DNA from: Clostridia bacterium
Lineage (GTDB): Bacteria > Bacillota > Clostridia > Christensenellales > QALW01
Reading direction: 5' to 3'
Length of the DNA: 64,000 nucleotides
Assembly: GCA_045591115.1 (NCBI GenBank)
Contig: JAZNSH010000034.1
Span: 20,779-84,778, forward strand
Shown: positions 214 to 36,715 of the stretch, in pieces
How the letters are laid out: the number at the start of each line of letters is the position of its first letter
Numbering within the stretch: position 1 is the stretch's first letter
Program-made: the position numbers and the translations under genes
Notes under the pieces: model-generated
Databases searched by the model: none
What the model was told of the DNA's origin: nothing
What the model saw: the letters and a program-made list of their open reading frames with translations, nothing else

Positions 214-3044
214 TAAGACTTGCACTTAAGAAAATGATAAAAAACAAGAGCTTAACTCTTTCACTTTTTGTCGGTATTCTTGTTGCGATAGTAATATCTT
301 GCACAATACCGATTTATTCGCAAGGTATCGCTCACAGAATGCTCGTAACACAGTTTGAAAATTATCAGAACGAGAATGAAATAAGCCCTGCGACTACCAT
401 TATTTCCTGTTCGTTGACCTCATTTGGCCAGTCCGGTGATGGGACAGAAGCAGATAAATTTAATAGCTCTGTCAGCGTGAATAATTATAATTATTTCACA
501 AATTATCTTAATAATCATTTTTATCCAAAACTCAATATGCCTCCGCTTGTAAAAAGCGTTACCTTATCAACAACTGTCTATAAGTCGTGTGATTCAAGGA
601 CGTCTAATACGCCATTAATAACAGATGCCGTTTTTAAGGCTACAGACAGCTATGAAGGAGCTATAGAGATTATAAGCGGAAAAATGCCTGAAAAGCAAGA
701 AGATGATGAAATTATCGAAGTTATGATAAGTAAGGCTACTCAGGCAAAAACAAAGTATGTTGTTGGAACTATTATTAACGTTGGAGAAACAACTAACAAG
801 CTTAAATTTAATGAACTGATTTTTAAGGCTAAAATAGTTGGTGTTTTTGATTACGTTAATAATCCATACAGCACGATTATAGATCAGGATACAGGAATTG
901 AATTCTATCTTGACTATGAAAACTTATATGATGAATTATTGGTTAAAAGAAATCTTATTTCACAGGGGACCTGGTATTATGCAGGTGATTTTACAAAGTT
1001 AGATGCAAACAATTCTGCTGAAATTATAAGTGCCGTTAAGGATCTTGAAAACAGAGCGATAGAATGGGGGATTATAACTGATCCTGATGTTAAAATTCCA
1101 CCATTGGCACAATATGAAGAATATTATAAAAATTTTAGTTCCGTAAATGTTTTACTTGTGCTTTTTTACGCACCCGTATTGATTCTTGTTATTTTTTTCA
1201 TTTTTATGATCTCAAAATTTGTCGTTGAAAATGATAAAAATGAAATTTCAATGCTCAATTCCAGAGGTGCTTCAAGATGGCAAATTCTCTGGCTGTATTT
1301 TTTGCAGGGAGGAACAATTTCGATCGTTTGCATGATCGTTGCACCTTTCCTGGCACTTTTATTGTCAAATTTTTTAGGTGCAACGTCAGGTTTTTTGGAG
1401 TTTGGTCAGCGCGCTCCAATCAAGCTTGATCTAAGTCTTTCAGTTATCTTGTTTGCATTTGTTGCGGCGATTCTTTCTGTTGCTACTATGCTTATTCCGG
1501 TTTATAGAAATGCTAAGATTGAGATTGTTCAGCATAAAAACAGAAAAAGAAATCCTTTGATTGCCAAAATTATTTTGGCTGTAATCTGTGTGTTTGCTTT
1601 TTTACTTACAATATATGCATATTACGTTCTTGTTATTGAAAAAGGCGGGTTATTTACAAAATCAGATAGTGTTCAACCTCTTGCTTATGTATTCATTATA
1701 AGCTTTTTTGCAGCAGTTGCTTTGTTGTTTATACTCATTTATCCGTATATTTTGAATTTTATTATAGAACTTCGTCAGAAAAAATGGAGTGCGGATAAGT
1801 TTTCTGCGTTTTCACGAATCTCAAAGCTTGAGAACAAAGAAAAATTCATAATGGTGTTTTTAATTCTTACCATTGCAATAGGGGTTTTTTCTTCAATTTC
1901 TGCAAGAACTTTAAACACTAATATGGATAAAAATACTGATTATCAGTATCCTTGTGATATAATGGCTGATGTCAGATATCTCGAAACACCAAATCGCAGA
2001 TATCTTTTTGATGATGTTGATGGAATTGAAGCGACAAAAATTACAATAGGTAATTCGCCGATCTTAAATTCAAACAGAAGAAACCTTGAAAGCGATATTG
2101 ACTTGATGGGAATTACTCCTAAAGAATTTTCAAAACTTATCACTTGGGATGATTCGATCTTACCTCAATCAATGGATGAGTATATGAGGCAAATGCAGAA
2201 TGATATTAAATCTTGCATCATATCAAGGAATGTCGCTGAAAAACTTAACGTTAAAAAAGGTGACGTTATAAACGTTTATGTTGATGAAACCTTGAGCCGA
2301 AGAACCGTAATTGATGCAAATATAATTGAAATCGTTGAAGCTTGGCCAACATATTATCCTACTGAAATCAACGAATTTGGTGAAGAGGTTGACAGATACC
2401 TTATAGTTTTGAATAATGATGCTATTGATAAGGTTTCAAAAAATCAAAATTATAAAGTTTGGATGAATACAGATTACAGTGTTGATGAGTTAAAAACACT
2501 CACTATGACTTTGGGAGCCAGAGCCGACAATAATTATGATAGAGTAAGGGTTTACCTGGAAAATATTATTAATGGTAAAGAAGAACAGTATTTAAGTCAA
2601 ATTAACTCTGTCAGACAAGCTACTAATGGGTCACTTACATTAGGTTTTATTTCAGTTATATTTGTTTGCGCAATAGGTCTTGTTGTTTATTGGATCATTT
2701 CATTAAAGAGTAGAATGCTTCAAATTGGAACTATGCGTGCACTGGGTATGTCATTTAAGAATGTGCGCAGTATGGTGATTTTAGAAGAAATTCTTTTGTG
2801 CAGCAGTGCTATAGCTGTAGGTTTGATCGCTGGTGTTGTATCAGGTGTGCTGTTTTCACCCTTATTCCAATCAGCCTTTGGCGAAATGGGACAGATGCCA
2901 CCGTACGTTATATCGATAAATTTCAATGATATCTTTAAATTGATGATTCTAATAACTTTATTAATCTTAATTTCAACAAAAGCAGTTACGTATATGCTTA
3001 AGAGAATTAAGGCAACAACTGCTATTAAACTTGGGGAGGAATAA
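210..3044 (+). CDS. ABC transporter permease, MacB/FtsX type, fused double module
   Basis: 944-aa ORF. It has an N-terminal TM helix and two FtsX-like multi-TM blocks (about aa 310-440 and 808-935). Each block is preceded by a large hydrophilic, presumably extracytoplasmic, region. It sits between an adaptor gene and two ABC ATPase genes. Confidence 0.8.
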   Translation: MIRLALKKMIKNKSLTLSLFVGILVAIVISCTIPIYSQGIAHRMLVTQFENYQNENEISPATTIISCSLTSFGQSGDGTEADKFNSSVSVNNYNYFTNYLNNHFYPKLNMPPLVKSVTLSTTVYKSCDSRTSNTPLITDAVFKATDSYEGAIEIISGKMPEKQEDDEIIEVMISKATQAKTKYVVGTIINVGETTNKLKFNELIFKAKIVGVFDYVNNPYSTIIDQDTGIEFYLDYENLYDELLVKRNLISQGTWYYAGDFTKLDANNSAEIISAVKDLENRAIEWGIITDPDVKIPPLAQYEEYYKNFSSVNVLLVLFYAPVLILVIFFIFMISKFVVENDKNEISMLNSRGASRWQILWLYFLQGGTISIVCMIVAPFLALLLSNFLGATSGFLEFGQRAPIKLDLSLSVILFAFVAAILSVATMLIPVYRNAKIEIVQHKNRKRNPLIAKIILAVICVFAFLLTIYAYYVLVIEKGGLFTKSDSVQPLAYVFIISFFAAVALLFILIYPYILNFIIELRQKKWSADKFSAFSRISKLENKEKFIMVFLILTIAIGVFSSISARTLNTNMDKNTDYQYPCDIMADVRYLETPNRRYLFDDVDGIEATKITIGNSPILNSNRRNLESDIDLMGITPKEFSKLITWDDSILPQSMDEYMRQMQNDIKSCIISRNVAEKLNVKKGDVINVYVDETLSRRTVIDANIIEIVEAWPTYYPTEINEFGEEVDRYLIVLNNDAIDKVSKNQNYKVWMNTDYSVDELKTLTMTLGARADNNYDRVRVYLENIINGKEEQYLSQINSVRQATNGSLTLGFISVIFVCAIGLVVYWIISLKSRMLQIGTMRALGMSFKNVRSMVILEEILLCSSAIAVGLIAGVVSGVLFSPLFQSAFGEMGQMPPYVISINFNDIFKLMILITLLILISTKAVTYMLKRIKATTAIKLGEE

Positions 3045-3045
3045 T

Positions 3046-3738
3046 ATGGCAACAATAATTAAAGCAATAAATATTTGCCGTGATTTTCCCTCAGGAAATT
3101 CTACTGTAAGAGTATTAAAATCAGTAAATGTTGATTTCGAAGAAAAGGCATTAACTGTTTTGAAAGGCAGGTCAGGTAGCGGTAAAACAACGCTTATGAA
3201 TATTCTTGGATTACTTGATAAACCTACCAGCGGACATATTCTTATTAACGGTCACGATATAACTGACATAAGCGATGATGATGCTGATGAGATCAGAAAA
3301 AGATACATATCTTTTGTTTTTCAGTCGGTTGCTTTAATGAGCTCAATGTCAGCATTTGATAACGTTGAATTTATGCTTCGTGTTGCAGGCCTTCCACTTG
3401 ACAAAGATCGAGTGCTTCATTGCCTTGACCTTGTCGGTTTAAAAAATAGAGCATACCATATGCCTTATCAGCTTTCAGGTGGCGAACAACAACGTGTTGC
3501 CATTGCAAGATCAATAGTGCATAAACCGCGGATAATATTTGCTGATGAACCAACAGCTCAACTTGATAGTGAAACATCAAGAATTATTATGGAAATGTTT
3601 CATAAAATTATTAAGGATGAGGGGACGTCAGTCATTATGACGACTCATGATGCCAATATGATGGAGTTAGCTGATAGGGTTTATACTCTTGATGACGGAA
3701 GAATTACCGATATTCAGATAAATATGGAGGAGGTATAA
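3046..3738 (+). CDS. ABC transporter ATP-binding protein (MacB/LolD-like NBD), subunit 1
   Basis: Walker A GRSGSGKTT, signature LSGGEQQR, Walker B IIFADEPT. I prefer the ATG at 3046, preceded by GGGGAGGA, over the TTG at 3031 given in the track. Confidence 0.9.
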   Translation: MATIIKAINICRDFPSGNSTVRVLKSVNVDFEEKALTVLKGRSGSGKTTLMNILGLLDKPTSGHILINGHDITDISDDDADEIRKRYISFVFQSVALMSSMSAFDNVEFMLRVAGLPLDKDRVLHCLDLVGLKNRAYHMPYQLSGGEQQRVAIARSIVHKPRIIFADEPTAQLDSETSRIIMEMFHKIIKDEGTSVIMTTHDANMMELADRVYTLDDGRITDIQINMEEV

Positions 3739-3739
3739 T

Positions 3740-4618
3740 ATGGCTATTGTTTCCTGTGAAAACCTCGTTCGTATTTATAAAACAAATGAAACGGAAGTTC
3801 TTGCACTGCAAGGGCTCGATATTTCTATTGATGAAGGCGAGATCGTTGCTATTATCGGCGCAAGCGGAAGCGGTAAAAGTACATTTTTAAATATTCTTGG
3901 CGGGCTTGATAAACCAAGTGCAGGTAAAATAACTGTTGCTGGAATGGATCTTTCAAAGCTAACAGATAAAGATATGCTTATATACAAACGCAATATTGTT
4001 TCATTTATCTGGCAAAACAGTGCAAGGAATTTACTTCCTTATTTGACTGCTATTGAAAATATCGTTCTTCCTATGGAATTATTAGGAAAAAAGCCTGATT
4101 ACAACAAGGCAAGAAGATTATTAAAGCTTGTTGGAATAGGTGATAAAGCAGATTCTAAGCTATTTACTTTATCCGGCGGTGAGCAACAGAGAGTTGCTAT
4201 TGCGATGGCTATTTCAAATCAACCAAAAATTCTTTTGGCTGACGAGCCAACCGGTGCAGTCGACAGTAAAACCGCCAATATGATTCTTGATCTTTTCAGA
4301 AAGATAAATAAAGAATTAGGTGTAACGGTCATTATAGTTACACATGATATGAAGCTTTCGGCAAAGGTTGACAGAGTAATAAAAATTCGTGATGGCAGAA
4401 CAAGTACTGAGTATATTAAGCTTGATAAAGATACGTCAGATCTTATGTTTGATCACTCAGGAGCTGAAGCAACACATAAGGAATTTGTTGTTGTTGACCG
4501 TGTTGGAAGACTTCAGATTCCTGCTGAAATGCTTGAAAAAGCGCAAATTCAGCCTATGAGCCGTGTGCGTCTTGAATTTGATGAAAATAATCATATTGTT
4601 TTAATTCCGTTTGAATAA
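3740..4618 (+). CDS. ABC transporter ATP-binding protein, subunit 2, with a C-terminal AbrB/SpoVT-like extension
   Basis: Walker A GASGSGKST, signature LSGGEQQR, Walker B ILLADEPT. It carries an extra tail of about 70 aa, ...VVVDRVGRLQIPAEMLEKAQIQPMSRVRLEFDENNHIVLIP. The tail resembles the swapped-hairpin motif of SpoVT in this window (ELGRVVIPKEIRRTLHFREGDPLEIF). Confidence 0.85.
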   Translation: MAIVSCENLVRIYKTNETEVLALQGLDISIDEGEIVAIIGASGSGKSTFLNILGGLDKPSAGKITVAGMDLSKLTDKDMLIYKRNIVSFIWQNSARNLLPYLTAIENIVLPMELLGKKPDYNKARRLLKLVGIGDKADSKLFTLSGGEQQRVAIAMAISNQPKILLADEPTGAVDSKTANMILDLFRKINKELGVTVIIVTHDMKLSAKVDRVIKIRDGRTSTEYIKLDKDTSDLMFDHSGAEATHKEFVVVDRVGRLQIPAEMLEKAQIQPMSRVRLEFDENNHIVLIPFE

Positions 4619-4623
4619 AATAG

Positions 4624-4652
4624 TTGACAAAATTCATTTGAATAATTATAAT
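4624..4652 (+). promoter_or_regulatory. Consensus sigma-A-type promoter: TTGACA, 17-nt spacer, TATAAT
   Basis: TTGACA at 4624-4629, a 17-nt spacer (aaattcatttgaataat), then TATAAT at 4647-4652. An AGGAG Shine-Dalgarno sequence and the ATG at 4680 follow. Confidence 0.65.
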
Positions 4653-4679
4653 TTTAAAAAATCTTTAGGAGAAATTACA

Positions 4680-4778
4680 ATGATTAAGCATATTTACCTT
4701 TTAAATAAAGATATGCAGTCCGTCAATGTTATGCTTTGGCATAACGGCGGGCTTACATTGCTATATCATTGTTCGTAG
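4680..4778 (+). CDS. Small ORF of 32 codons (MIKHIYLLNKDMQSVNVMLWHNGGLTLLYHCS); candidate leader peptide or small protein
   Basis: It is too short for the ORF track. AGGAG lies 8 nt upstream of the ATG and a consensus promoter lies upstream of that. A strong terminator hairpin begins 24 nt after the TAG stop. Confidence 0.4.
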   Translation: MIKHIYLLNKDMQSVNVMLWHNGGLTLLYHCS

Positions 4779-4801
4779 CTATTTCTATGTAGATTTGATA
4801 T

Positions 4802-4841
4802 AAGCAGTGCAGGCTATTATATATGCTTGCACTGCTTTTTT
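4802..4841 (+). terminator. Rho-independent terminator or attenuator hairpin
   Basis: AAGCAGTGCAGGC / GCTTGCACTGCTT forms a 13-bp stem with one G-U pair and a 10-nt loop, followed by TTTTTT. The methyltransferase SD (GGAGG, 4846-4850) starts 5 nt after the T-run. Confidence 0.75.
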
Positions 4842-4855
4842 ATTTGGAGGTTTTT

Positions 4856-5644
4856 ATGAAAGTTAAAGAATATTTATCAGAGTATTATAAGGTCAAGGAT
4901 GAAAATAATCGTTTGGCTTCAAAATGTGGAATGGTTGAGTATATAACAACAATGAAGTATATAGAAAAATATTTGAAATATGGTATGAGCATTCTTGAAA
5001 TTGGCGCAGCAACAGGAAGATACAGTCATACTTTAGCACGAAAAGGCTATAAGGTAGATGCGGTTGAACTTATTGAGAGCAATATTGAAGTTTTCAAGAA
5101 AAACACACTTGAGGGTGAAAATATAACTATTACACAAGGTGATGCGGTTGATTTATCCGCTTTTAAAAGTGATACGTATGATTTAACATTATTGTTAGGA
5201 CCGATGTATCATTTGTTTACCGTGAAAGATAAAATAAAAGCTTTATCGGAGGCAATACGTGTTACGAAAAAAGACGGAATTATATTTGTTGCATATTGTA
5301 TGAGTGATCCTACGATATTGAACTTCGGCTTTAAAAAGGGTGAAATTTTCGATCTGATAAACAAGGGAATGGTTAATATTGAGACATTTGAAACATTATC
5401 TCGTCCGCAAGATATAATTGAACTTTCGAGAAAAGAAGACATTGATAAATTAAGAAATAATTTTAACGTAAAACAATTACACTTTGTTGCGTCAGATGGA
5501 TACGCCAACCATATGAAAGAATTTTTGAATGAAATGGATGATAAAATGTATGATCTTTATATTAAGTATCATCTTGCAACTTGTGAAAGGCAAGATATGG
5601 TTGGCTATTCACATCATACTTTAGATATTTTTAGAAAGGAATAA
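4856..5644 (+). CDS. Class I SAM-dependent methyltransferase
   Basis: SAM-binding motif ILEIGAATGRYS...DAVE and the acidic loop GDAVDL. I prefer the ATG at 4856, after GGAGG. The track start at 4823 would lie inside the terminator hairpin. Confidence 0.8.
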   Translation: MKVKEYLSEYYKVKDENNRLASKCGMVEYITTMKYIEKYLKYGMSILEIGAATGRYSHTLARKGYKVDAVELIESNIEVFKKNTLEGENITITQGDAVDLSAFKSDTYDLTLLLGPMYHLFTVKDKIKALSEAIRVTKKDGIIFVAYCMSDPTILNFGFKKGEIFDLINKGMVNIETFETLSRPQDIIELSRKEDIDKLRNNFNVKQLHFVASDGYANHMKEFLNEMDDKMYDLYIKYHLATCERQDMVGYSHHTLDIFRKE

Positions 5645-5648
5645 AAAA

Positions 5649-6218
5649 ATGATTACACATAAAGGCACTCAAACTATAAAAACGCAAAGACTGATTCTTC
5701 GAAGATTTACTGTTAATGATGCAACTGATATGTTTAACAATTGGGCAAATGATGAAAGAGTTACAAGATTTTTAACTTGGGAGCCTCACGGTAACCTTGA
5801 AAATACCCAAAATCTTTTGAATTTATGGTGTTTCGGATACGATAGTGTTGAAAACTATAATTGGGCAATAACATATAATGAAAAAGTTATTGGTAGTTTG
5901 AGTGTTGTTCGTATGAGCAATAGAGATGAATATGCTGAAATCGGGTATTGTTTGGGTTATGACTTCTGGAATAACGGAATGATGACAGAAGCAGTTAAAG
6001 CAGTTATCACATTCTTATTTAAAGAGGTTGGGTTTAACAAGGTATGTATTTCTCACGCAGTAAAAAATCCGGCATCGGGAATGGTGGCAAAAAAATGTGG
6101 TTTAAAACTTGATGGAGTAAAAAGAGAAGATTTTAAATCAAGAGATGGCGAGTTTTATGATATTGCAATATATAGTATATTAAAAAGTGAATGGGAAAGA
6201 AATAAGCGAGAGTTATAA
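5649..6218 (+). CDS. GNAT family N-acetyltransferase (RimJ/RimL-like)
   Basis: 189 aa. The N-terminus TQRLILRRFTVNDATDMFNNWANDERVTRFL and the later MMTEAVKAVITFLF...GF.KV segment are typical of RimJ/L-type GNATs. Confidence 0.85.
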   Translation: MITHKGTQTIKTQRLILRRFTVNDATDMFNNWANDERVTRFLTWEPHGNLENTQNLLNLWCFGYDSVENYNWAITYNEKVIGSLSVVRMSNRDEYAEIGYCLGYDFWNNGMMTEAVKAVITFLFKEVGFNKVCISHAVKNPASGMVAKKCGLKLDGVKREDFKSRDGEFYDIAIYSILKSEWERNKREL

Positions 6219-6231
6219 AAAACTCTCGCTT
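6204..6231. terminator. Hairpin between convergent genes (probable bidirectional terminator)
   Basis: AAGCGAGAGTT / AACTCTCGCTT forms an 11-bp stem with T-rich flanks on both strands. It lies between the GNAT stop (6218) and the SDR stop (6249). Confidence 0.6.
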
Positions 6232-6248: not shown

Positions 6249-7094
6249 TTAAACTCCTGAATAAGCAGCAAAGCCACCGTCAACGGGAACTACAACGCCT
6301 GTAACAAAGCCGGAAGCTTCGTCGGAAACAAGCCATAAAAGAGTTCCTGTAAGGTCATCCATTTCGCCAAAGCGATCCATAGGCGTGCCACGAAGAATCT
6401 TTTCGGTTCTTGCGGTAGGTTTGCCGTCTTTAAAGAGAAGGTCTCTGTTTTGGTTTGTAACAAAGAAACCGGGCGCAATAGCATTAACACGGATATTGCA
6501 GGGAGCAAAGTGAACTGCAAGCCACTGTGTAAGGTTTGAAACGGCTGCTTTTGCGGCAGAATATGCAGGGATCTTTGTGAGGGGACGGAAAGCGTTCATT
6601 GATGAAACGTTAAGAATTACACCGCCATTTTTAACCATTTCCTTTGTAAACACCTGAGTTGTAAGCACAGCGGCAACAACGTTAAGGTCAAATACGAATC
6701 TTATTCCGTCAGGATCAAGATCAAAGAAGGTTTTAAGATCTTTGTTATCAAGCATATCAGGTGTCATTGTTTCATTATCCGTTGTGCCACGGGGGTTATT
6801 TCCACCTGCACCGTTAATAAGAATATCACAAGCACCTAATTTTTCAACAACAACTGCGTGTGCTGCTTCAAGGCTTTCTGTTTTTAAACAGTTTGCTTCA
6901 ACTGCAATTGCACAACCGCCGTCTTTGATAATTTCATCTGCAACAGCCTGAGCAGCCGCTGTGTTAATGTCGAGAAGTGCTACTTTAGCACCGCATGCAG
7001 CAAGTGCTTTTGCAAAGCCTGAGCAAAGAACGCCGCCTGCACCTGTAATTACTGCAACTTTATCTTTTAAATCAATTTGAAAAGGTAATTTCAT
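6249..7094 (-). CDS. uxuB: SDR-family oxidoreductase, probable D-mannonate/fructuronate oxidoreductase
   Basis: Glycine-rich motif VAVITGAGGVLCSGFAKALAACGAKVALLD, and S...YSAAK catalytic residues. It is directly abutted to uxuA (0-nt gap). Confidence 0.65.
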   Translation of the reverse strand: MKLPFQIDLKDKVAVITGAGGVLCSGFAKALAACGAKVALLDINTAAAQAVADEIIKDGGCAIAVEANCLKTESLEAAHAVVVEKLGACDILINGAGGNNPRGTTDNETMTPDMLDNKDLKTFFDLDPDGIRFVFDLNVVAAVLTTQVFTKEMVKNGGVILNVSSMNAFRPLTKIPAYSAAKAAVSNLTQWLAVHFAPCNIRVNAIAPGFFVTNQNRDLLFKDGKPTARTEKILRGTPMDRFGEMDDLTGTLLWLVSDEASGFVTGVVVPVDGGFAAYSGV

Positions 7095-8141
7095 TTATTT
7101 ATCTCCTTTCACAATGGCTTCCCAAAGACCATTAAGGTAGGAAGCGCCTAATGCTCTGTCAAATAAGCCGTAACCGGGTCTTCCGTCTTCGCCCCAGATA
7201 TTTCTGCCGTGGTCAGGACGAGTATAACCGTCAAAGCCGTTATCATAAAGAGCTTTCAATATGCCGTACATATCAAGTGATCCACAAGCAGTGGGGTGGG
7301 GGCTTTCATTGAAGCGAGCATCACCTGTAAAACGAATGTTTCTTGCGTGGAGGAAATGAACTCTTCCCATTTTTGCATATTTGGCGGCAAGTTTAACCAT
7401 ATCGTTTTTAGGACTGCAACCAAGTGAACCGGTGCAAAGTGTAATTCCATTATAAACAGAATCTACTGCCTTGAACATTCTGTCGATATTTTCTTCATTT
7501 GAAATGATACGTGGAAGACCAAACATACTCCACGGCGGATCGTCCGGATGAATAGCCATTTTAACGTCACATTCTTCACAAACGGGAATAATTCTTTCAA
7601 GGAAGTAAATAAGGTTTTCGAGGAGCTTTTCTTCGTCAATGTTCTTGTATGCATCAAGAAGTCCCTGGAGCTGCTCTTTAGTGTAGCTTTCATCCCAACC
7701 GGGAAGAGAAAGCTCTCCCTTTGCCGGATCCATTGCATTAACGGTTGCCTGATCATATGCAAGGCAGGTTGAACCATCTTCATTCTTCATTTTAAGATCT
7801 GAACGGAGCCAGTCGAATACGGGCATAAAGTTATAGCAAATAACCTTAACACCTGCTTGTCCCAGGTTACGAATAGTTGTGCAGTAGTTTTCGATAAGCT
7901 TATCACGTGTCGGCGCGCCCATTTTAATATCTTCGTGCACGGGAACACTTTCGATAACTTCCATTTTAAGATTTTTAGCATTAACTTTTTCTTTAAGTGC
8001 CAAAATACGCTCAAGGGGCCAAACTTCACCAACGGGAACGTCATAGATTGCAGTAACAACACCGCTCATCTGGGGAATCTGGCTGATATATTCGAGGGTA
8101 ACGGGATCATTTTCACCGTACCAACGGAAAGTCATATCCAT
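7095..8141 (-). CDS. uxuA: Mannonate dehydratase
   Basis: 348 aa with the N-terminus MDMTFRWYGENDPVTLEYISQIP, typical of UxuA. It sits between uxaC and the SDR gene. Confidence 0.9.
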   Translation of the reverse strand: MDMTFRWYGENDPVTLEYISQIPQMSGVVTAIYDVPVGEVWPLERILALKEKVNAKNLKMEVIESVPVHEDIKMGAPTRDKLIENYCTTIRNLGQAGVKVICYNFMPVFDWLRSDLKMKNEDGSTCLAYDQATVNAMDPAKGELSLPGWDESYTKEQLQGLLDAYKNIDEEKLLENLIYFLERIIPVCEECDVKMAIHPDDPPWSMFGLPRIISNEENIDRMFKAVDSVYNGITLCTGSLGCSPKNDMVKLAAKYAKMGRVHFLHARNIRFTGDARFNESPHPTACGSLDMYGILKALYDNGFDGYTRPDHGRNIWGEDGRPGYGLFDRALGASYLNGLWEAIVKGDK

Positions 8142-8159
8142 ATATATGTATTCTCCTTA

Positions 8160-9542
8160 TTAAAAATTAAAATATTTTTTTGCATTTTCGTATGAAATGC
8201 CCTCAATAAGCTTGCCACAGTCCGGATCAAACTCACCATTTTCAACCCATTCACCAATTTCATTACAGAGGATTCTTCTGAAGAAATCAAAGCGAACGTA
8301 TGAGGTGAAGCTTCTTGAATCCGTAAGCATACCGATAAATCTACCCAAAAGACCTGCATTTGCAAGAGCATGAATCTGTGCTTTGATGCCATCAACATGA
8401 TCATTGAACCACCAAGCTGAGCCAAGCTGCATTTTACCCGGAACTTCACCTGAAAATGCTCCTGTCATTGCGGCAATCATATCGTTAACTGTTGAGTTAA
8501 GGCAATAGAATATAGTTTTGGGTAAGTTGCCTTCTTTATTGATATCATCAAGCATTCTTGCAAAGTGTGCTGCAGAGATAGGATCACCAACAACGTCTAT
8601 TCCGCTATCTGCACCTGTAAGTGAGAAAAGTTTTGAGTTAACGTTTCTTAAAGGAGCCATATGTATCTGCATAACCATATTCTTTTCAGCATATCTTACT
8701 GCGAAGAAACGAGTCATATAATCAGTATATTTATCAAGATCTGCTTGGTCAATCTTTTTGCCTTCAAGTACCGAACAAAATGCTTTCTTAGCATCTTCGT
8801 ATTCGCCTTTTACGGGAGGGATATAACCAAGAGCATGGTCTGCAACAACACATCCTGCTGAAACGAAATATTCAAGACGTTTTTCAAGAACTGTCAGCAA
8901 CGTATCAAAACTATCTATTTCAGTATTTTCTGTTGCACCTAAACGCTTAACGTAATCGAGAATATCATCACGATTAAGGCCGAAGCAAATGATATCAGGG
9001 CGGAAGGTAGGCAATACCTTTGTATCCATATTCTTCATAAGCTTATGATACTTAAGATCATCAGCAGGATCATCAGTGGTACATATTACCTTAACATTGC
9101 AATGTTTAATCAGCTCTTGTGATGAGAATCCGCCTGCTTTGATCTTTGCGTTGGCTTCTTCCCAAATGCCTTCAACGCTTTTTTCGGTTAAAGGCTTGTT
9201 GATACCAAAAAGCTGCTTTAACTCCATATGCGCCCAATAATAAAGCGGGTTATGGGGAGCATATTCAAGGGTTGAGGCAAATTTGATGAATTTATCCTTA
9301 TAATCTGCATTACCCGTTATAAATGTTTCATCAACACCGTTTTGACGCATTGCACGCCACTTATAGTGGTCGCCTGCCAACCATAATTCACCGATATTCT
9401 CAAAAGCTTTATTTTCATAAATTTCCTTTGGATTAAGATGACAGTGGTAGTCGATTATAGGCTGATTTTTAGCATATTTTTCATACAATTCTACTGCTGA
9501 ATTATTGTTAAGCAAAACTGTATCGTCAAAAAATTTTTTCAT
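8160..9542 (-). CDS. uxaC: Glucuronate (uronate) isomerase
   Basis: 460 aa with ...PIIDYHCHLNPKEIYEN... and the ...WWFNDH... motifs of UxaC. Confidence 0.9.
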   Translation of the reverse strand: MKKFFDDTVLLNNNSAVELYEKYAKNQPIIDYHCHLNPKEIYENKAFENIGELWLAGDHYKWRAMRQNGVDETFITGNADYKDKFIKFASTLEYAPHNPLYYWAHMELKQLFGINKPLTEKSVEGIWEEANAKIKAGGFSSQELIKHCNVKVICTTDDPADDLKYHKLMKNMDTKVLPTFRPDIICFGLNRDDILDYVKRLGATENTEIDSFDTLLTVLEKRLEYFVSAGCVVADHALGYIPPVKGEYEDAKKAFCSVLEGKKIDQADLDKYTDYMTRFFAVRYAEKNMVMQIHMAPLRNVNSKLFSLTGADSGIDVVGDPISAAHFARMLDDINKEGNLPKTIFYCLNSTVNDMIAAMTGAFSGEVPGKMQLGSAWWFNDHVDGIKAQIHALANAGLLGRFIGMLTDSRSFTSYVRFDFFRRILCNEIGEWVENGEFDPDCGKLIEGISYENAKKYFNF

Positions 9543-9553
9543 AATAAAATCCT

Positions 9554-10552
9554 TTAAAATATAATTTCGTTTCCTCTTGATTCATACATAGCCAAAAGAA
9601 CTTTAAGTGCTTTTGCTGCTTCCTCAACACCGATAGGCATATCTTCATTATTTTCAAGGCGACGATAGAAGTCGTTGAAAAGCATCATATGTCCAACACC
9701 CCAATAGCCTTTACCATCAGAGCTTGTTGCTGTATCATAAAGCTCTTGCTTCTTACCATCAATAAAAAGATCGTCATCAACAAGCTTTAACGTCATATTT
9801 TCACAAACAACTTCAAGAGAAACAGGTGAATCGGTATAGTGTGCTGTTGTTGCATAAAACATACCTTTTGCACCGTTTTTAAAGGTAATGTATGCACTTG
9901 CGGTATCTTCAACATCTATAATGTTTTTTAAGTGGTAATTTGCAGTCATAGCGGTAAGCTTTTCTGGAGCACCACATAACCATAACATTAAATCCAGCGT
10001 ATGAATTGCTTGATTTATCATTACGCCGCCACCCTCGGTAGCCATAAAGCCTCGCCAATGGCTATCCACATAATAGCTTTCATTTCTTGACCACAAAACG
10101 GATCCGTTTGCAAATTTAACAGTACCTGCTTCGCCTGAAGAAATAAGTTCTTTAGCTTTTTTATTTCTCAAAAGATATCTGTTCTGGAATGAAATGCATA
10201 TTTTTGCATTACTTTCTTTCTCTGCTTTTATAAGCTCTTCAACCTGTGTGAGATTGATACACACAGGTTTTTCGAGCATAACATTAATATTTCTTTTTAA
10301 AGCGGCAATAGCCATTTCACTGTGGAGATAGTGGGGGGTACACACGTGCAGAACGTCCGGCTTAACAGAATCAAGCATTTTAACGTAATCATCAAAAATT
10401 TCCGCATCAGGTGCATAAGTATTTTTTAATTTTTCTGCGCGCTCTTTTAAAATATCGCAAACTGCAACAATTTTTACATTGCTCATTTTTGATAAATAAG
10501 TTGCATGTGTTTGTGCAATTCCACCGCAACCAACTATAGCAGTTCTGAACAC
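9554..10552 (-). CDS. Gfo/Idh/MocA family NAD(P)-dependent oxidoreductase (332 aa)
   Basis: N-terminal Rossmann motif IVGCGGIAQTH, the family EKP motif (MLEKPVC), and a C-terminal alpha/beta domain. Confidence 0.85.
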   Translation of the reverse strand: MFRTAIVGCGGIAQTHATYLSKMSNVKIVAVCDILKERAEKLKNTYAPDAEIFDDYVKMLDSVKPDVLHVCTPHYLHSEMAIAALKRNINVMLEKPVCINLTQVEELIKAEKESNAKICISFQNRYLLRNKKAKELISSGEAGTVKFANGSVLWSRNESYYVDSHWRGFMATEGGGVMINQAIHTLDLMLWLCGAPEKLTAMTANYHLKNIIDVEDTASAYITFKNGAKGMFYATTAHYTDSPVSLEVVCENMTLKLVDDDLFIDGKKQELYDTATSSDGKGYWGVGHMMLFNDFYRRLENNEDMPIGVEEAAKALKVLLAMYESRGNEIIF

Positions 10553-10568
10553 TTTATTTCATCTCCGA

Positions 10569-11765
10569 TTAGTTATTATAGGTATTGGAAAGGTCTGCAG
10601 AGCCTGCTGCCTTAACTTCTTTCTTTACAACGGTTGAATTTTTGATTTTTTCCTGAAGTAGATCATAGAACTTCTTGCCATCAAAAGGAAGATCAATTGT
10701 TTCATTTGTCCAAGTTGAAAGAAGCATAGCGTTTGCAAGAGTAACGCCTTTAATACCGTCAGCAGCAGGAGCATAAAGTTCCTCAATACCGAGAACAGCA
10801 TCTGCAAAGTTGTTAAGAATGCCAACGTGTTGTGTATTTTCGCCTTCGGGTGTAAGTTCGATAACTTCACACTTAGGTGTTCCGAAAGGAGTATCTGCTT
10901 CAACAAGATGTTTGCTGATAGGTGTATCAAGCTTTTTGAAAGTAACTTTTCCGTTATCAAAAATGAGAGTTCCCTTGTCACCGGTAACTTCAAAGCGGTT
11001 AGTTCCGGGAGCATCTGCAGTAGTTGTAATGAACACGCCCGTTGCACCGTTGGGATATTCAAAGTATGCAGTTACGTCATCTTCAACTTCAATGTCATGC
11101 CATTTTCCGAAGTGACAGAATGCACGAACCTTATTGGGCATCATATCAGGAATCCACTGGAAAAGGTCAATGTTATGAGGAGCCTGATTATAAAGAACGC
11201 CGCCACCTTCGCCTGCCCAGGTTGCACGCCATCCGCCGCTGTTATAATAGAATTGATTTCTGTACCAGTTGGTAATGATCCAGTTAAGACGTTTAATTTC
11301 GCCAAGCTCACCGTCAGCAATCATCTTTTTCATAAGCTTAAATGCGGGGTTTGTTCTCTGATTAAACATAATACCAAGTTTTAATTCAGGATGCTTTTTA
11401 GCTTCCTCGAGCATTTCATCAACCTGAAGAGTATAAACACCGGCGGGTTTTTCAACAATAGCGTTCATACCGTTCTTTAAAGCCTTAATAGCATACTCAG
11501 GGTGGAAATAGTGGGGGATAGCAACAATAACAACGTCACAAGTTTTTGCGGCAATGAGTTCATCACCTGAATTATAAAAATTAATTGTGTTTATAGCATA
11601 GGGGTTATCGTTCTTAATAATAACTTTTGCGTTTTCAAGTTTTGCAGGATCAATATCTGCAATAGCTGTAACAATACCATTCTTAATTCTGTTGTTTATT
11701 AAATTTCTTAAGTGGCCTGAACCCATATTGCCAACACCGATAATACCAAATCTTACTTTTTCCAT
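10569..11765 (-). CDS. Gfo/Idh/MocA family NAD(P)-dependent oxidoreductase (398 aa)
   Basis: GIIGVGNMGSGH Rossmann motif, an EKP motif (IVEKPAG) and WRATWAGEGGGVLYNQAPHNIDL. The start overlaps the upstream gene by 13 nt. Confidence 0.85.
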   Translation of the reverse strand: MEKVRFGIIGVGNMGSGHLRNLINNRIKNGIVTAIADIDPAKLENAKVIIKNDNPYAINTINFYNSGDELIAAKTCDVVIVAIPHYFHPEYAIKALKNGMNAIVEKPAGVYTLQVDEMLEEAKKHPELKLGIMFNQRTNPAFKLMKKMIADGELGEIKRLNWIITNWYRNQFYYNSGGWRATWAGEGGGVLYNQAPHNIDLFQWIPDMMPNKVRAFCHFGKWHDIEVEDDVTAYFEYPNGATGVFITTTADAPGTNRFEVTGDKGTLIFDNGKVTFKKLDTPISKHLVEADTPFGTPKCEVIELTPEGENTQHVGILNNFADAVLGIEELYAPAADGIKGVTLANAMLLSTWTNETIDLPFDGKKFYDLLQEKIKNSTVVKKEVKAAGSADLSNTYNN

Positions 11766-12637
11766 ACTTTGTCTTCTCCTTCAACATATCCTAAATTTTT
11801 TAATATATCCTTAAGTGCGTTTACTGCCGCATCAAAAGATTCGTTCTGATTTTCGAAATGGAATTTATGCTTTAATTCTCTTGTATCAAGGTTGGAATAG
11901 CCCATAAAAGCGAAAAGATGAGGCTCTACAGAAACAAATGTTTCATCATCTTTTATTTCTGAGATCTTTGTGAGAACTTCTGAAATTTTACCATCGCCAT
12001 GTCCTGCAGGAACAATAATATGTCCGTCAAGACAAGCATCTTTAATATGAAGATACTCAATATAATTTTTAGTGTTATCAACAGCCCAAGTTATATCTGC
12101 ATCATCCATAATATAGTTTGCCGGGTCAAAAATACCTCTGATTCCTTTAACGCTTTCAAGAATATCCTTAACTTCTTCCGGTAAGCATCCGTAAATTTTT
12201 GCTTCATTTTCGTGGCAAAGAAGTACGCCTTCTTTTTCAGCATACTCAACCATAGCGTTAAGACGTTTCATAACTTCATCTCTGTAGTCTCTGGCTTTTT
12301 CACCTTCGGGAATAAAGAAGCTGAACATACGGATATTCTTTGTTCCAAGAATCTGTGCAGTTTTTACTGCCTTCTTAAAACGCTCAAAATGAGGCTGAAA
12401 ATCATCAACAATATTGTATTTGCCAATAGGGGAGCCGATAGAAGAAACTTTGATATTTGCTTCCTTTAATTGTTTCGCAATCTCTTTGAGCTCCTCTTCA
12501 GAATAATCAATAATACATTTGCCCGCAACGTTTCGAACTTCGATATAACCCATATTATTGCGTTTAAGTGCGGCAATCTGACCCTGAAGGTCACCGGCTG
12601 CTTCGTCGGCAAAGCCTGATATAATGTATTTTGCCAT
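11753..12637 (-). CDS. Sugar phosphate isomerase/epimerase (xylose isomerase-like TIM barrel)
   Basis: About 295 aa with an alternating beta/alpha pattern and conserved HENE / H.KD / EPH metal-ligand-like motifs (LCHENEAKIY, LHIKD, SVEPH). The start at MAKYII (12637) is preferred over the track start at 12649. Confidence 0.8.
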   Translation of the reverse strand: MAKYIISGFADEAAGDLQGQIAALKRNNMGYIEVRNVAGKCIIDYSEEELKEIAKQLKEANIKVSSIGSPIGKYNIVDDFQPHFERFKKAVKTAQILGTKNIRMFSFFIPEGEKARDYRDEVMKRLNAMVEYAEKEGVLLCHENEAKIYGCLPEEVKDILESVKGIRGIFDPANYIMDDADITWAVDNTKNYIEYLHIKDACLDGHIIVPAGHGDGKISEVLTKISEIKDDETFVSVEPHLFAFMGYSNLDTRELKHKFHFENQNESFDAAVNALKDILKNLGYVEGEDKVWKK

Positions 12638-13416
12638 TATTTTACCCATCCTTTCTTTTTAAGACCTTCAATACTTTTTTTCATTTCATTTAAACTATCA
12701 CCTGATTGAGGAGCATTATCCTGCTCAACATATGCAACAAGTGTGTTTGTCTTATTAAGTGCTTCAATTATGTAATCAATAGGTGTATCTCCTGTATACA
12801 AGGGAGTAATTTGATCAACAATTTTTCCATCGACTTCAATTTTCTTTTTAAAGTCTTTAAGATGGACGTATATAAGGCGATCAGCAAATCTTTCAATATC
12901 TTCCTTTATATCACATGAATTTGCAAGGTCTGCCCAGCCTGTATCAAGAATAATTTTCCAATCGGTTTTATTATAAATTTCATCAATAGTACGATTTCCA
13001 ACTTCACCAACAAATTCAAAAGCGTGGTTATGATAACCAAATGTAAGACCTGCCTCGTTTATTTTTTTGATAGCAGGGGACATATCTGCAATCATTTTAT
13101 CAACATCAACAGGGCCCGTTCCATTGGGACGATACTCCCAACCACCACCAATACCAACCATATCTGCACCCATTATTTTATGTTTTTTTATAACTTCGTC
13201 AGTATTGTTAATTATTTCTGAGATAGATGTATGCGTAAGGCCGATATGTAATCCATTTTTGTCAGCCTCTTCGCGTACTACTTCAGCATCGTAAGGAAAA
13301 CCACTTACCTGTACAGAAACGTAACCTTGATTTTTTAACTCTGCAAATGTTGCTTTTATGCTCTCGGCATCACCACAACAATCTCTTACAGAATATAATT
13401 GTGCGCCAATTTTCAT
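12637..13416 (-). CDS. Sugar phosphate isomerase/epimerase (xylose isomerase-like TIM barrel)
   Basis: About 259 aa: MKIGAQLYSVRD..., YHNHAFEF, LDTGW, VHLKD. The ATG at 13416 lies 6 nt after GAGGTG. The GTG start in the track is part of that SD. Confidence 0.8.
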   Translation of the reverse strand: MKIGAQLYSVRDCCGDAESIKATFAELKNQGYVSVQVSGFPYDAEVVREEADKNGLHIGLTHTSISEIINNTDEVIKKHKIMGADMVGIGGGWEYRPNGTGPVDVDKMIADMSPAIKKINEAGLTFGYHNHAFEFVGEVGNRTIDEIYNKTDWKIILDTGWADLANSCDIKEDIERFADRLIYVHLKDFKKKIEVDGKIVDQITPLYTGDTPIDYIIEALNKTNTLVAYVEQDNAPQSGDSLNEMKKSIEGLKKKGWVK

Positions 13417-13551
13417 AATAATCACCTCAAATTTTTTGTTGTAATTTTCTACAAAATGTATTATACTATATTTGATAAAAAAATGACATTGTTAATAATG
13501 CTGTTTTTTTGAAAATTTCTCGAAAAATTTCAATGTTTTAAGGATTTTTTT

Positions 13552-14361
13552 ATGGAAAAAAGTAATCATATTCGTTTTAAAGGCTTTTATTATCATCATA
13601 CTTGTGATGAAAATCCTTCTCCAACAGAGTTTTCACGTCATTGCCACAATATGTATGAAATAATTTACATAAAAAGAGGTAACGGAACGTTTTATGTTGA
13701 GGGTTCAAAATATACAATATATCCGGGATGTTTGCTTGTGTTCAGACCTCGCGAATTTCATTGTGTAAACGTATCTTCAAAAACACCATATGAGAGGTTA
13801 GTCGTTCATTTTGATGAATCAACGGTGTTTGAAAATGCTGCATTGTTGCTTGATATATTTCATAACAGAGAATTGGGTGTTAATAACATTTATCCTGATA
13901 TTAAACAAAATATTTCTCTAACATTTGAACGTATTTCATCTTGTTCGGAGTTGAATGAGCCTGAGCGCTCAATTATGGCAAAGCTGATTTTAAACGAACT
14001 GCTTGTTGTTTTACATAATGAATTTGCAACGAATCCTGAAAACGAAACGGGTGAAAAGTTAATAACGAGGATTGTTAACTATATTAACGAAAACATATCT
14101 ACTCAATTTAGACTTGAAGAACTTGCCGATAAATTTTTTATCAGTAAATATCATTTAGGGCATATGTTCAAAAAGCATACCGGATTACCTGTGATGGAAT
14201 ATATTATTCGCAAACGCGTTGTGATGGCACAACAGCTTATTTCTGAGGGTTGCCAAGCGTCAACAGCTGCTACAATGAGCGGTTTTAATGATTATTCTGC
14301 ATTCTACCGAGCATACACAAAATATATTGGAACAAAGCCCTCAGGTGAACTTGCAAAATAG
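13552..14361 (+). CDS. AraC family transcriptional regulator (cupin sensor domain plus HTH)
   Basis: N-terminal cupin-like region (HCHNMYEIIYIKRGNGTFYVEG) and a C-terminal AraC double HTH (FISKYHLGHMFKKHTG...GFNDYSAFYRAYTKYIG). It is divergent from the seven-gene sugar operon. Confidence 0.85.
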   Translation: MEKSNHIRFKGFYYHHTCDENPSPTEFSRHCHNMYEIIYIKRGNGTFYVEGSKYTIYPGCLLVFRPREFHCVNVSSKTPYERLVVHFDESTVFENAALLLDIFHNRELGVNNIYPDIKQNISLTFERISSCSELNEPERSIMAKLILNELLVVLHNEFATNPENETGEKLITRIVNYINENISTQFRLEELADKFFISKYHLGHMFKKHTGLPVMEYIIRKRVVMAQQLISEGCQASTAATMSGFNDYSAFYRAYTKYIGTKPSGELAK

Positions 14362-26667: not shown

Positions 26668-26707
26668 TTTGTTACGATTTTATTACAAAAGGACGTGTTT
26701 TGCCAAA

Positions 26708-27532
26708 ATGAACTCAAAAACAGAAATGAAATTTATTTTGCGAAGAGTTGGATTTGCCGTTATAGCGGTTTTGCTTGTTATTATACTAATGATTATCGTA
26801 TTTTCAAATAAAAAAGATAAAAGTAATAATTCATCTTTTGTTCAGAAAACACCTGAAAACACGGAGAGCATTGGTGTTTTTAATCCAATAACAACACCGA
26901 TACCAACGCAAAAATTAAAACCAGAAAAAAGGTCTATTTTAATTTATCACACACATAATGATGAAGCTTATTATAAGGGATCAAAAAAGTATGTGGAATC
27001 TGATACCGGAAGAAGCTTTGATGAAAACTATAATATTATATCAGTTGGAAATGCTTTAAAAAACAATTTAGAATCAAGAAATTTTAATGTAATTCACGAT
27101 AAAAGCGATAGTGTTTCTGCAGGGTTTTATTCAGCATATGATACAAGTTATCAAAACATAAAAAATTATATAGGCAAAGTTGATATTTTTATTGATTTGC
27201 ACAGAGATGCGTATTACAATACAAAACAAAATTATTTAAAGAAAAATTCAAAGGAATATGCATATATAAGGATGGTTGTTGCAAACGGAACAAATTATGA
27301 TAATAAACCAAACTATACAGAAAATTTAAAATTTGCGGAAGCTTTAGATGAAAGATTAAATAATATTTTACCTGGAATATCAAAAGGAATTTTTATTAAG
27401 GAAGCAAGATTAAATCAACACATATCAAATTTTTGCTTACTGATAGAAATAGGAAATGAAAAAAATGATATAGAACAAGCTAGAAACAGCACTGAAATTA
27501 TTGCACAAGCGTTAAATGATATTTTTTATTGA
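26708..27532 (+). CDS. spoIIP: Stage II sporulation protein P (SpoIIP family amidase/peptidase)
   Basis: N-terminal TM anchor, then ILIYHTHNDEAY and DLHRD motifs. The ATG at 26708 is preferred over the TTG at 26669. Confidence 0.8.
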   Translation: MNSKTEMKFILRRVGFAVIAVLLVIILMIIVFSNKKDKSNNSSFVQKTPENTESIGVFNPITTPIPTQKLKPEKRSILIYHTHNDEAYYKGSKKYVESDTGRSFDENYNIISVGNALKNNLESRNFNVIHDKSDSVSAGFYSAYDTSYQNIKNYIGKVDIFIDLHRDAYYNTKQNYLKKNSKEYAYIRMVVANGTNYDNKPNYTENLKFAEALDERLNNILPGISKGIFIKEARLNQHISNFCLLIEIGNEKNDIEQARNSTEIIAQALNDIFY

Positions 27533-27562
27533 CAAAAAGCTGTTTTGGGTTTAAAATATACT

Positions 27563-27598
27563 CAACACTTCGCAAAACTTGTGTTTTGCGAAGTGTTG
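27563..27598. repeat. Perfect 16-bp inverted repeat with a 4-nt loop (hairpin without a U-tract)
   Basis: CAACACTTCGCAAAAC ttgt GTTTTGCGAAGTGTTG, between the spoIIP stop and the recombinase gene. No T-run follows on the plus strand. Confidence 0.8.
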
Positions 27599-27635
27599 AC
27601 AAAGTGCCCTATATTAAAAAAAGGACGTGTTTTTT

Positions 27636-28667: not shown

Positions 28668-28697
28668 AAGAGGATGTTTTGCATCCTCTTATTTTAT
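28668..28697. terminator. Bidirectional rho-independent terminator
   Basis: AAGAGGATG / CATCCTCTT stem flanked by an A-run and a T-run, between convergent genes. Confidence 0.75.
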
Positions 28698-35122: not shown

Positions 35123-35133
35123 AATCTTTTACC

Positions 35134-36612: not shown

Positions 36613-36652
36613 GAGTTACCTCCAATGCTTTTTTTATTAGCATATCGCATAT

Positions 36653-36664
36653 AATTTGACTTTT
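36653..36664 (+). repeat. Direct 12-mer AATTTGACTTTT, copy 1 (contains the -35 element)
   Basis: It is identical to the 12-mer at 36695-36706. TTGACT (36656-36661), a 17-nt spacer and TACAAT (36679-36684) form a candidate promoter for the AraC gene. Confidence 0.6.
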
Positions 36665-36694
36665 CTCGCAAAATAGTATACAATATATAGACGA

Positions 36695-36706
36695 AATTTG
36701 ACTTTT
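36695..36706 (+). repeat. Direct 12-mer AATTTGACTTTT, copy 2
   Basis: An exact copy 42 nt downstream of copy 1, ending 9 nt before the AraC ATG. Confidence 0.6.
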
Positions 36707-36715
36707 GGAGGAAAT

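Follow-up and report, generated by a model that had tools for sequence, protein, structure and literature searches.

A seven-gene operon on the minus strand of a 64,000-nucleotide stretch of Clostridia bacterium DNA (contig JAZNSH010000034.1 of assembly GCA_045591115.1, positions 20,779 to 84,778; the whole stretch is referred to here as the window) is probably a glucuronide catabolic operon under AraC-type control, whose products would cleave glucuronides in the cytoplasm by a stepwise 3-keto, non-Koshland route. Its first four genes encode two TIM-barrel proteins and two Gfo/Idh/MocA oxidoreductases, and its last three encode UxaC, UxuA and an SDR-type UxuB (Table 1). The initial annotation of this DNA had suggested that such a cassette might deglycosylate a glucuronide oxidatively and feed the released uronate to UxaC, a suggestion now supported by one-to-one homologues of the four cassette proteins with demonstrated biochemistry. 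Its second suggestion, that the substrate might be an anhydro-uronate, found no support.

The homologues are those of P2B11, a fosmid from a human gut metagenomic library with a Collinsella-like Gram-positive source, which came from a screen aimed at glycosidase activities outside the usual Koshland mechanisms (Nasseri et al. 2024, bioRxiv 10.1101/2024.03.25.586180). The P2B11 genes are arranged in the order Iso1-Oxido1-Oxido2-Iso2, and the four-protein set cleaves glucuronides of both alpha and beta configuration, and also a thioglucuronide, by way of a 3-keto intermediate, while glucosides are not cleaved. Activity requires Oxido1 and at least one Iso protein, with Iso1 and Iso2 each supporting aglycone release in combination with Oxido1; Oxido2 speeds the reaction and can slowly substitute for Oxido1. 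The set is stimulated by Mn2+ or Co2+ and works without added NAD(P)(H). PDB entry 8TDI, 'P2B11 Glucuronide-3-dehydrogenase', belongs to the same study, in which the stepwise mechanism was established for related Alistipes and Bacteroides enzymes (bioRxiv 10.1101/2024.03.25.586180). A literature search on 3-keto glucuronide cleavage by MocA-type enzymes returned this preprint only.

When the four window proteins were compared with the four P2B11 proteins by BLASTP, the best matches paired them cleanly, one to one. The 398-aa oxidoreductase is 46% identical to P2B11 Oxido1 (E=2e-93), and a search of PDB sequences matched it to 8TDI over residues 1-375 with E=1.3e-89, the next structure following at E=6e-26. 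The 332-aa oxidoreductase has Oxido2 as its best match among the four P2B11 proteins (34% over 326 residues, E=6e-56), and the Iso1-like protein, compared in its 298-aa form, matches P2B11 Iso1 over its full length (33%, E=7e-40). The P2B11 sequences were taken from the preprint supplement and carry some machine-reading errors, the Oxido1 identity being calculated from the exact PDB sequence. In the case of the 259-aa Iso2-like protein, the match to P2B11 Iso2 is weak (24.5% over residues 3-190, E=1e-9).

Residues of presumed catalytic importance are conserved along with the families. The Oxido1 pocket residues N147, W179, R181, Y185, N205 and H209 correspond to N135, W167, R169, Y173, N193 and H197 of the 398-aa protein, a numbering that takes account of the 10 extra N-terminal residues given for native P2B11 Oxido1 in the supplement, and all six are invariant across an alignment of 13 sequences that includes P2B11 Oxido1 and the window protein. 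Equivalent-looking residues (N124, W154, R156, Y160, N180 and H184) can be picked out by eye, without a formal alignment, in the 332-aa protein. The Iso1-like motifs HENE, FDPAN, HIKD and VEPH show no variation across 30 homologues, and P2B11 Iso1 shares HENE, DPAN, HIKD and EPH.

The weak Iso2 relationship is reinforced by shared motifs, by a bridging sequence and by matches to known lyases. The Iso2-like protein carries YHNH (128-131), LDTGW (157-161), VHLKD (184-188) and VEQD (230-233), and a family alignment found YHNH, LDTxW, HLKD and VEQD kept in both Iso2 clades, the P2B11-type sequences differing mainly by two insertions. A Paludicola protein, TIM252, bridges the clades, being 36% identical to the window protein and 30% identical to P2B11 Iso2 over nearly the full length. 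The window protein also matches the AL1/BT1-type lyases 8TCS and 8TCD (E~1e-7) and the Agrobacterium tumefaciens O-glycoside beta-eliminase (OGE) 8BVK (E=5.5e-7; PMC10628242). The metal and 3-keto-sugar binding positions of AL1/BT1 (H-x-H, D-x-x-W and the second metal H) are kept in it, as is the VEQD glutamate.

Taken by its four protein families, the cassette can thus be assigned, with support from sequence, to a putative P2B11-type cluster for 3-keto cleavage of glucuronides. The 398-aa protein is predicted to be a glucuronide 3-dehydrogenase with tightly bound NAD, and the 332-aa protein an auxiliary 3-dehydrogenase or 3-keto-uronate reductase. Of the TIM-barrel proteins, the Iso2-like one is a predicted Mn2+/Co2+-dependent 3-keto-glucuronide 1,2-lyase (beta-eliminase), and the Iso1-like one a predicted second lyase, 2-hydroxy-3-keto-glycal hydratase, or both. 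We infer this allocation of roles within the TIM-barrel pair and within the oxidoreductase pair.

Structure comparison of the Iso1-like protein brings in a different possibility. Its AlphaFold2 (AF2) model is a TIM barrel with a pLDDT of 92, and Foldseek returned generic xylose-isomerase-like PDB neighbours (TM ~0.7, 12-19% identity), including the 3-keto-D-glucoside 4-epimerase YcjR (6WN6), ketose 3-epimerases, IolI, an IolE-like protein and AtHYD (8RO4), a 2-hydroxy-3-keto-glucal hydratase. With YcjR and ketose 3-epimerases among the closest folds, the cassette might be imagined as an epimerisation or isomerisation module working through 3-keto intermediates, like E. coli YcjQ/YcjR/YcjS, which would leave the glycosidic bond intact and turn another uronic acid, whether free or in glycosidic form (for instance one epimeric at C4 or C2), into glucuronate or fructuronate. 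Two dehydrogenases would suit an oxidise-epimerise-reduce scheme, and UxaC is often missing from related operons. Such a module is nonetheless improbable: fold matches at this level are generic, the P2B11 homologues of both TIM-barrel proteins release an aglycone when combined with Oxido1, and the Iso2-like sequence resembles proven beta-eliminases.

For 3-keto cleavage of glucuronides, the reaction sequence can be proposed by analogy with P2B11. In the first step, the Oxido1-like enzyme would oxidise C3 of an alpha- or beta-D-glucuronide with its tightly bound NAD+. The metal-dependent TIM-barrel pair would then abstract H2 and eliminate the aglycone, giving a 2-hydroxy-3-keto-glycal uronate, and the TIM-barrel proteins would hydrate this to 3-keto-D-glucuronate. 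The reduced Oxido1-like enzyme, aided by the Oxido2-like enzyme, would re-reduce C3 to yield D-glucuronate, so that the net outcome of these steps would be a redox-neutral hydrolysis. Glucuronate would next be converted to fructuronate by UxaC, to mannonate by the SDR-type UxuB and to 2-keto-3-deoxygluconate by UxuA, all three of which exceed the curated NCBIfam cut-offs, and KdgK and KdgA, encoded elsewhere in the genome, would complete the pathway. The cassette enzymes are probably cytoplasmic, since none of the four N-termini, judged by eye, resembles a signal peptide. Here we infer the natural substrates, the effector of the AraC regulator and the chemistry, the last from the P2B11 homologues.

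The association with glucuronate catabolism is not confined to the window. Species-representative genomes scanned with an Oxido1-like alignment yielded 80 loci, for which same-strand operon maps were made. All but one of these (79/80) are titled Bacillota or carry the names of orders or families that we assigned there, the remaining one being a metagenome-assembled genome (MAG) of Candidatus Latescibacterota; the sources include MAGs of Clostridia from gut and rumen, as well as Paenibacillus, Cohnella and others. An Iso-like gene lies beside the Oxido1-like gene in 50 of the 80 loci, both Iso types are present in 25, and a second Gfo/Idh/MocA gene is found in 39. The initial annotation had proposed surveying other genomes for linkage to uxaC, uxuA and uxuB, and this linkage recurs: at least one hexuronate gene shares the same-strand run in 26 of the 80 loci (UxuB in 23, UxuA in 16, UxaC in 7). 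In a Pfam census of the 116 other operon members, the only recurrent extra partners were a PfkB kinase (5) and a 2-keto-3-deoxy-6-phosphogluconate (KDPG) aldolase (2), which are the next two pathway steps after UxaC, UxuB and UxuA; no transporter, glycosidase, sulfoglycolysis or sugar-phosphate gene was recurrent among these members.

The seven-gene order of the window, together with the AraC gene, recurs in three related loci (L001, L003 and L162), and a fourth (L002) has the same order with Iso2-like and Oxido1-like genes duplicated in tandem (1030-6100) and no detected AraC gene, a recurrence that argues against a chance arrangement. L162 repeats the window operon along with its flanking genes, and its Iso1-like protein is present in 87 blocks of the assembly collection. 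In other cases the order is modified. L163 reads AraC< Iso2-Iso1-Oxido1-Oxido2-UxuA-UxuB, without UxaC, and in Paludicola sp. MB14-C6, a cultured isolate with a complete genome (L161, CP133133.1), the hexuronate genes come first: AraC< UxaC-UxuA-UxuB-aldolase-kinase-Iso2-Iso1-Oxido1. Five loci (L013, L020, L029 at 9143-11164, L036 and L071) encode Iso1 and Oxido1 as single open reading frames (ORFs) of about 673 aa, with both domains confirmed by Pfam in L029. Such fusions support tight functional coupling of the two proteins, and might channel the 3-keto intermediate.

A second, divergent clade was sampled by scanning metagenomes with the true P2B11 Oxido1, which gave another 80 loci (L081-L160) at 62-85% identity. 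The order Iso1-Oxido1-Oxido2-Iso2 is kept in every one of these that is complete enough to show it, and UxaC lies directly 3' of Iso2 in 10 of the 80, one of the ten also having UxuA. The linked hexuronate gene differs by clade, with UxuB and UxuA far outnumbering UxaC in the Bacillota loci and UxaC standing almost alone in the P2B11-like clade. Because two divergent clades that differ in gene order both show the linkage, D-glucuronate is the likely physiological product.

The same recurrence bears on the idea that the main substrates are other 6-anionic glycosides (6-phospho-, 6-sulfo- or sulfoquinovosyl compounds), with the uxa/uxu genes forming a separate module that merely shares the promoter. 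P2B11 enzymes do cleave 6-phosphate, 6-sulfate and sulfoquinovoside substrates, but slowly relative to glucuronides (bioRxiv 10.1101/2024.03.25.586180). A glucuronate-specific linkage in two clades, and the lack of sulfoglycolysis or sugar-phosphate genes among the recurrent partners in related operons, leave this idea with very little to recommend it.

A further alternative places the cassette in an inositol-to-hexuronate route akin to the IolG/IolM/IolN/IolO enzymes of Thermotoga maritima, a pathway that Rodionova et al. are said to have described in 2013 as ending in 5-keto-L-gluconate and tagaturonate, followed by UxuB and UxuA. The best NCBIfam models point this way by name, as both oxidoreductases come out as IolG and one of the TIM-barrel proteins as IolE; the Iso1-like model has IolI and an IolE-like protein among its fold neighbours, and linkage is more frequent for UxuA and UxuB than for UxaC. 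Firm clustering with the inositol enzymes, which the initial annotation had named as an outcome speaking against its own proposal, is not what was found. Both oxidoreductases score 107 and 86 bits with IolG (TIGR04380) against a cut-off of 355, and the TIM-barrel protein scores 44 bits with IolE (TIGR04379) against a cut-off of 290, a partial match over 89 residues, whereas matches to the P2B11 enzymes are far stronger. The operon has no inositol transporter, IolC, IolD or UxaE-type gene, nor does any of these recur in related operons, and the inclusion of UxaC in the window operon fits a glucuronate product. An inositol route is accordingly considered highly improbable.

Several observations weigh against the assignment of the operon to glucuronide cleavage. 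The window proteins are only 25-46% identical to the characterised enzymes, so that substrate specificity could differ, and comparing folds with the Iso1-like model does not tell lyase, hydratase, epimerase and isomerase functions apart. There is no linked transporter in the window, and no recurrent one in related operons, to indicate an imported substrate. Most related operons with UxuA or UxuB are without UxaC. In the Ashwell pathway, only the glucuronate branch uses UxuA and UxuB, and UxaC also serves the galacturonate branch; for these genomes, seen at the locus only, the simplest reason for the frequent omission of UxaC from Bacillota operons would be that the shared enzyme is encoded elsewhere. 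The greater linkage of UxuA and UxuB might alternatively mean that UxaC is bypassed, with the cassette yielding fructuronate directly. This was set aside as unnecessary, given that UxaC has a role in both branches, that it is the gene found linked in the P2B11-like clade and that both here and in Paludicola it lies within the operon. Lastly, P2B11 itself was found with a synthetic thioglucuronide and not with a natural substrate (bioRxiv 10.1101/2024.03.25.586180).

Comparison with characterised systems helps to define what the operon is and is not. The window cassette shares with P2B11 the same four families, the Oxido1 pocket, the metal and catalytic motifs of the TIM-barrel proteins and the same predicted chemistry of oxidation, elimination, hydration and reduction. 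It differs in coming from Bacillota rather than Actinomycetota, in lacking the two insertions of the P2B11-type Iso2, in being fused in one operon to UxaC-UxuA-UxuB and in its order Iso2-Iso1-Oxido1-Oxido2, the oxidoreductases of P2B11 being flanked by the isomerases. Because gene order varies among the Bacillota loci, we regard it as characteristic of a clade and do not judge function by it. The 3-keto-glucoside pathway of Alistipes (AL1-AL4) and Bacteroides thetaiotaomicron (BT2156-BT2159; 8TCD/8TCS) uses the same stepwise mechanism, but acts on glucosides, whereas the closest homologues of the window proteins act on glucuronides, and the window has a second TIM-barrel protein in place of the DUF1080 lyase/hydratase. 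The corresponding models fit poorly, with BT_2158/BT_2159 (NF058561/NF058563) scoring 21-46 bits against cut-offs of 650-750 and no DUF1080 protein in the operon.

The levoglucosan pathway is made up of LgdA, LgdB1, LgdB2 and LgdC. Together with OGE, the sequence match of the Iso2-like protein, and AtHYD, the structural neighbour of the Iso1-like model, it follows the same logic of dehydrogenase, TIM-barrel eliminase, TIM-barrel hydratase and reductase, but these pathways have other substrates and no link to uronate catabolism. The description of the cassette as 'Lgd/Dgp-type' in the initial annotation therefore stands as a mechanistic analogy and falls as a family assignment: the oxidoreductases score 69 and 64 bits with LgdA (NF052479) against a cut-off of 650, and the DgpA entries 7XR9 and 9M3D, from C-glycoside deglycosylation, are weaker matches than 8TDI, with E-values of about 1e-28 for the 332-aa protein and only 5e-9 for the 398-aa protein. 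No PDB entry named Dgp or Car was among the sequence matches of either TIM-barrel protein. The downstream half of the operon corresponds to the canonical hexuronate (Ashwell) pathway, UxaC-UxuB-UxuA, which is normally preceded by a beta-glucuronidase (GUS/UidA). Here the predicted cleavage of the bond would be carried out by the four-enzyme oxidative cassette and not by a GH2 glucuronidase.

The operon consists of seven tightly packed minus-strand genes that run from 13416 to 6249 in the ORF list of the window. The first gene most likely starts at the ATG at 13416, 7 bases downstream of a GAGGTG ribosome-binding site, and the second most likely at the ATG at 12637, as indicated by homologues of 294 aa that cover 99% of the query. 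In the ORF list, which gives extended forms, these genes span 12637-13425 and 11753-12649. The 12649 start would add four residues (MGKI) without counterpart in the homologues and create a 13-nt overlap; with the 12637 start, the first two genes overlap by a single nucleotide, an ATG-over-stop junction typical of translational coupling. The other junctions, in order of transcription, are a 13-nt overlap and gaps of 16, 11, 18 and 0 nt. The terminator at the end of the operon is bidirectional and common to the operon and a convergent GNAT gene, and the terminator-like sites on the minus strand within the operon amount to one 5-bp stem, with a total count at chance level. Much of this layout had been described in the initial annotation, and the later evidence agrees with it: ORF coordinates and start codons bear out the genes and junctions, the terminator count bears out a single terminator with no internal hairpin, and Pfam, with NCBIfam for the enzymes, confirms the divergent regulator, the fusion of two TIM-barrel and two Gfo/Idh/MocA genes to UxaC/UxuA/UxuB and the lack of any glycoside hydrolase or transporter gene in the operon.

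Table 1. Genes and signals of the operon and its divergent regulator, with window coordinates.
Feature	Position	Strand	Evidence or remark
Iso2-like TIM-barrel protein, 259 aa	12637..13416	-	Pfam AP_endonuc_2
Iso1-like TIM-barrel protein, 294 aa (298 aa from start 12649)	11753..12637	-	Pfam AP_endonuc_2
Oxido1-like Gfo/Idh/MocA oxidoreductase, 398 aa	10569..11765	-	Pfam, PDB 8TDI match
Oxido2-like Gfo/Idh/MocA oxidoreductase, 332 aa	9554..10552	-	Pfam, P2B11 Oxido2 match
UxaC, glucuronate isomerase (glucuronate to fructuronate)	8160..9542	-	PF02614 E=1.8e-179; NF002794 equivalog 524 bits, cut-off 387
UxuA, mannonate dehydratase (mannonate to 2-keto-3-deoxygluconate)	7095..8141	-	PF03786 E=7.5e-154; NF003027 499 bits, cut-off 191
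SDR-type UxuB, D-mannonate oxidoreductase (fructuronate to mannonate)	6249..7094	-	NF006132 414 bits, cut-off 281
Intrinsic terminator ending the operon	6204..6231	-	11-bp stem, 5 G-C pairs, T-rich tail on both strands
AraC-family regulator, cupin ligand-binding domain and HTH_18	13552..14361	+	Pfam; divergent from operon
Best promoter-like site upstream of operon, ATGTCA-18-TATAAT	13460..13489	-	10/12 consensus matches, consensus match only
Candidate AraC-regulator binding site, operator-like block	~13472..13504	-	Intergenic alignment

Control of the operon by the divergent AraC-family protein is suggested by the intergenic region. An alignment of this region from the window and six loci (L001, L003, L162, L163, L007 and L008), some of whose AraC proteins are only 33-37% identical, revealed a conserved block of the type GCA..TTTGCAAT..TTTxGCAA that adjoins and overlaps the -35 element of the best promoter-like site. 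This block is a candidate binding site for the AraC regulator. An AraC-family gene is found near the Oxido1-like gene in 30 of the 80 genome loci, and near the P2B11-like clusters in 20 of the 80 metagenome loci; in most it is divergent and upstream, and a downstream position on the same strand is seen in loci of the Paenibacillus/Cohnella type and in a few of those from metagenomes. The preprint describes P2B11 itself as having 'no apparent nearby transporter/regulator' (bioRxiv 10.1101/2024.03.25.586180).

The surroundings of the operon are housekeeping in character, with ABC/FtsX, methyltransferase and GNAT genes on one side and dprA, topA, trmFO, hslV and hslU on the other. Pfam searches of the operon and its flanking genes identified no glycoside hydrolase or sugar transporter, and there is no GUS or glucuronide transporter gene in the 64-kb window, the rest of which is without glucuronide-related genes. 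The sole glycosidase-like gene found in the window encodes an 823-aa protein with weak alpha-L-rhamnosidase (GH78-type) domains (54548-57019), about 41 kb from the operon. A second sugar locus lies at 33806-43811. It includes a 438-aa protein that has no match in Pfam, an FGGY kinase (35134-36612) and, divergent, an AraC regulator (36698-37486); three more genes are on the minus strand, one for a DUF1538 membrane protein (38178-39722) and two lacking Pfam matches. A GHMP kinase resembling galactokinase (40909-42174) and a uridylyltransferase resembling GalT (42312-43811) also belong to it. Sporulation genes in the window indicate a spore-forming Bacillota host. Between two of them, spoIIP and spoVT (window 26669-29236), is a phage-integrase-family gene (27627-28667) that probably encodes an XerC/D-like recombinase and does not mark the end of a prophage.

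Related loci of two kinds suggest that similar modules may serve other substrates. In Paludicola, the glucuronate genes and cassette are followed directly (L161, 12033-16914) by genes for an amidohydrolase resembling NagA, a glucosamine-6-phosphate isomerase resembling NagB, a third TIM-barrel protein and two further Gfo/Idh/MocA proteins, only distantly related to the cassette. This may point to a second 3-keto module, one for an amino sugar, and to substrates with both glucuronic acid (GlcA) and N-acetylglucosamine (GlcNAc). In the second group, 14 loci (L010, L011, L014, L021, L033, L038, L044, L045, L047, L055, L057, L061, L078 and L080) have Oxido1-like genes that are 48-53% identical. 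They are mainly from Paenibacillus, with L055 from Cohnella, L045 from Aquibacillus and L057 from a Bacillota MAG. These loci encode a different Gfo/Idh/MocA protein (~360 aa) and mostly also a different TIM-barrel protein (~288 aa), several with a downstream AraC gene, although L045 has the ~288-aa TIM-barrel protein without the ~360-aa Gfo/Idh/MocA protein. No uxu gene is present in the operon of any of the 14, and the uxaC gene of L033 is about 8 kb away. They are possibly a sister system with another substrate.

The deconjugation of glucuronides in the gut is currently credited to GUS enzymes, which are targeted with GUS inhibitors. Knowledge of the 3-keto route to the same end comes from a single metagenomic fosmid, assayed with synthetic substrates (bioRxiv 10.1101/2024.03.25.586180). 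The system was already described in 2024, and the window operon is a further example and not a new kind. What it adds beyond the main text of the preprint and its searched supplement is a different gene order and the fusion to glucuronate catabolism: term searches of the supplement found no mention of uxaC, mannonate or glucuronate isomerase, and uxa/uxu linkage is likewise not in the main text, a statement that covers the preprint and not the journal version. The wiring of the operon to enzymes of D-glucuronate catabolism, its own AraC regulator and the lack of a nearby glucuronidase provide genomic evidence for glucuronate as the intended product of the cassette. The pathway would then be a real catabolic route in many Bacillota, the cultured Paludicola sp. 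MB14-C6 included, which could serve for genetic work.

A broader proposal, tentative and rather doubtful at present, is that gut and rumen Clostridia widely possess this as a dedicated, GUS-free pathway for either anomer and as their main means of harvesting glucuronic acid, beyond the reach of GH2 inhibitors and uncounted in drug reactivation. If true, glucuronic acid would be drawn from plant, host, drug, hormone and bile-pigment glucuronides, and inhibitors of GH2 glucuronidases would not block the route, because its chemistry hinges on C3 and not on the anomeric centre. There would also be an uncounted contribution to the reactivation and enterohepatic recycling of glucuronidated drugs. 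The importance of operons of this type would be higher if the route proves to be a major GUS-independent contributor to the deconjugation of glucuronides in the gut.

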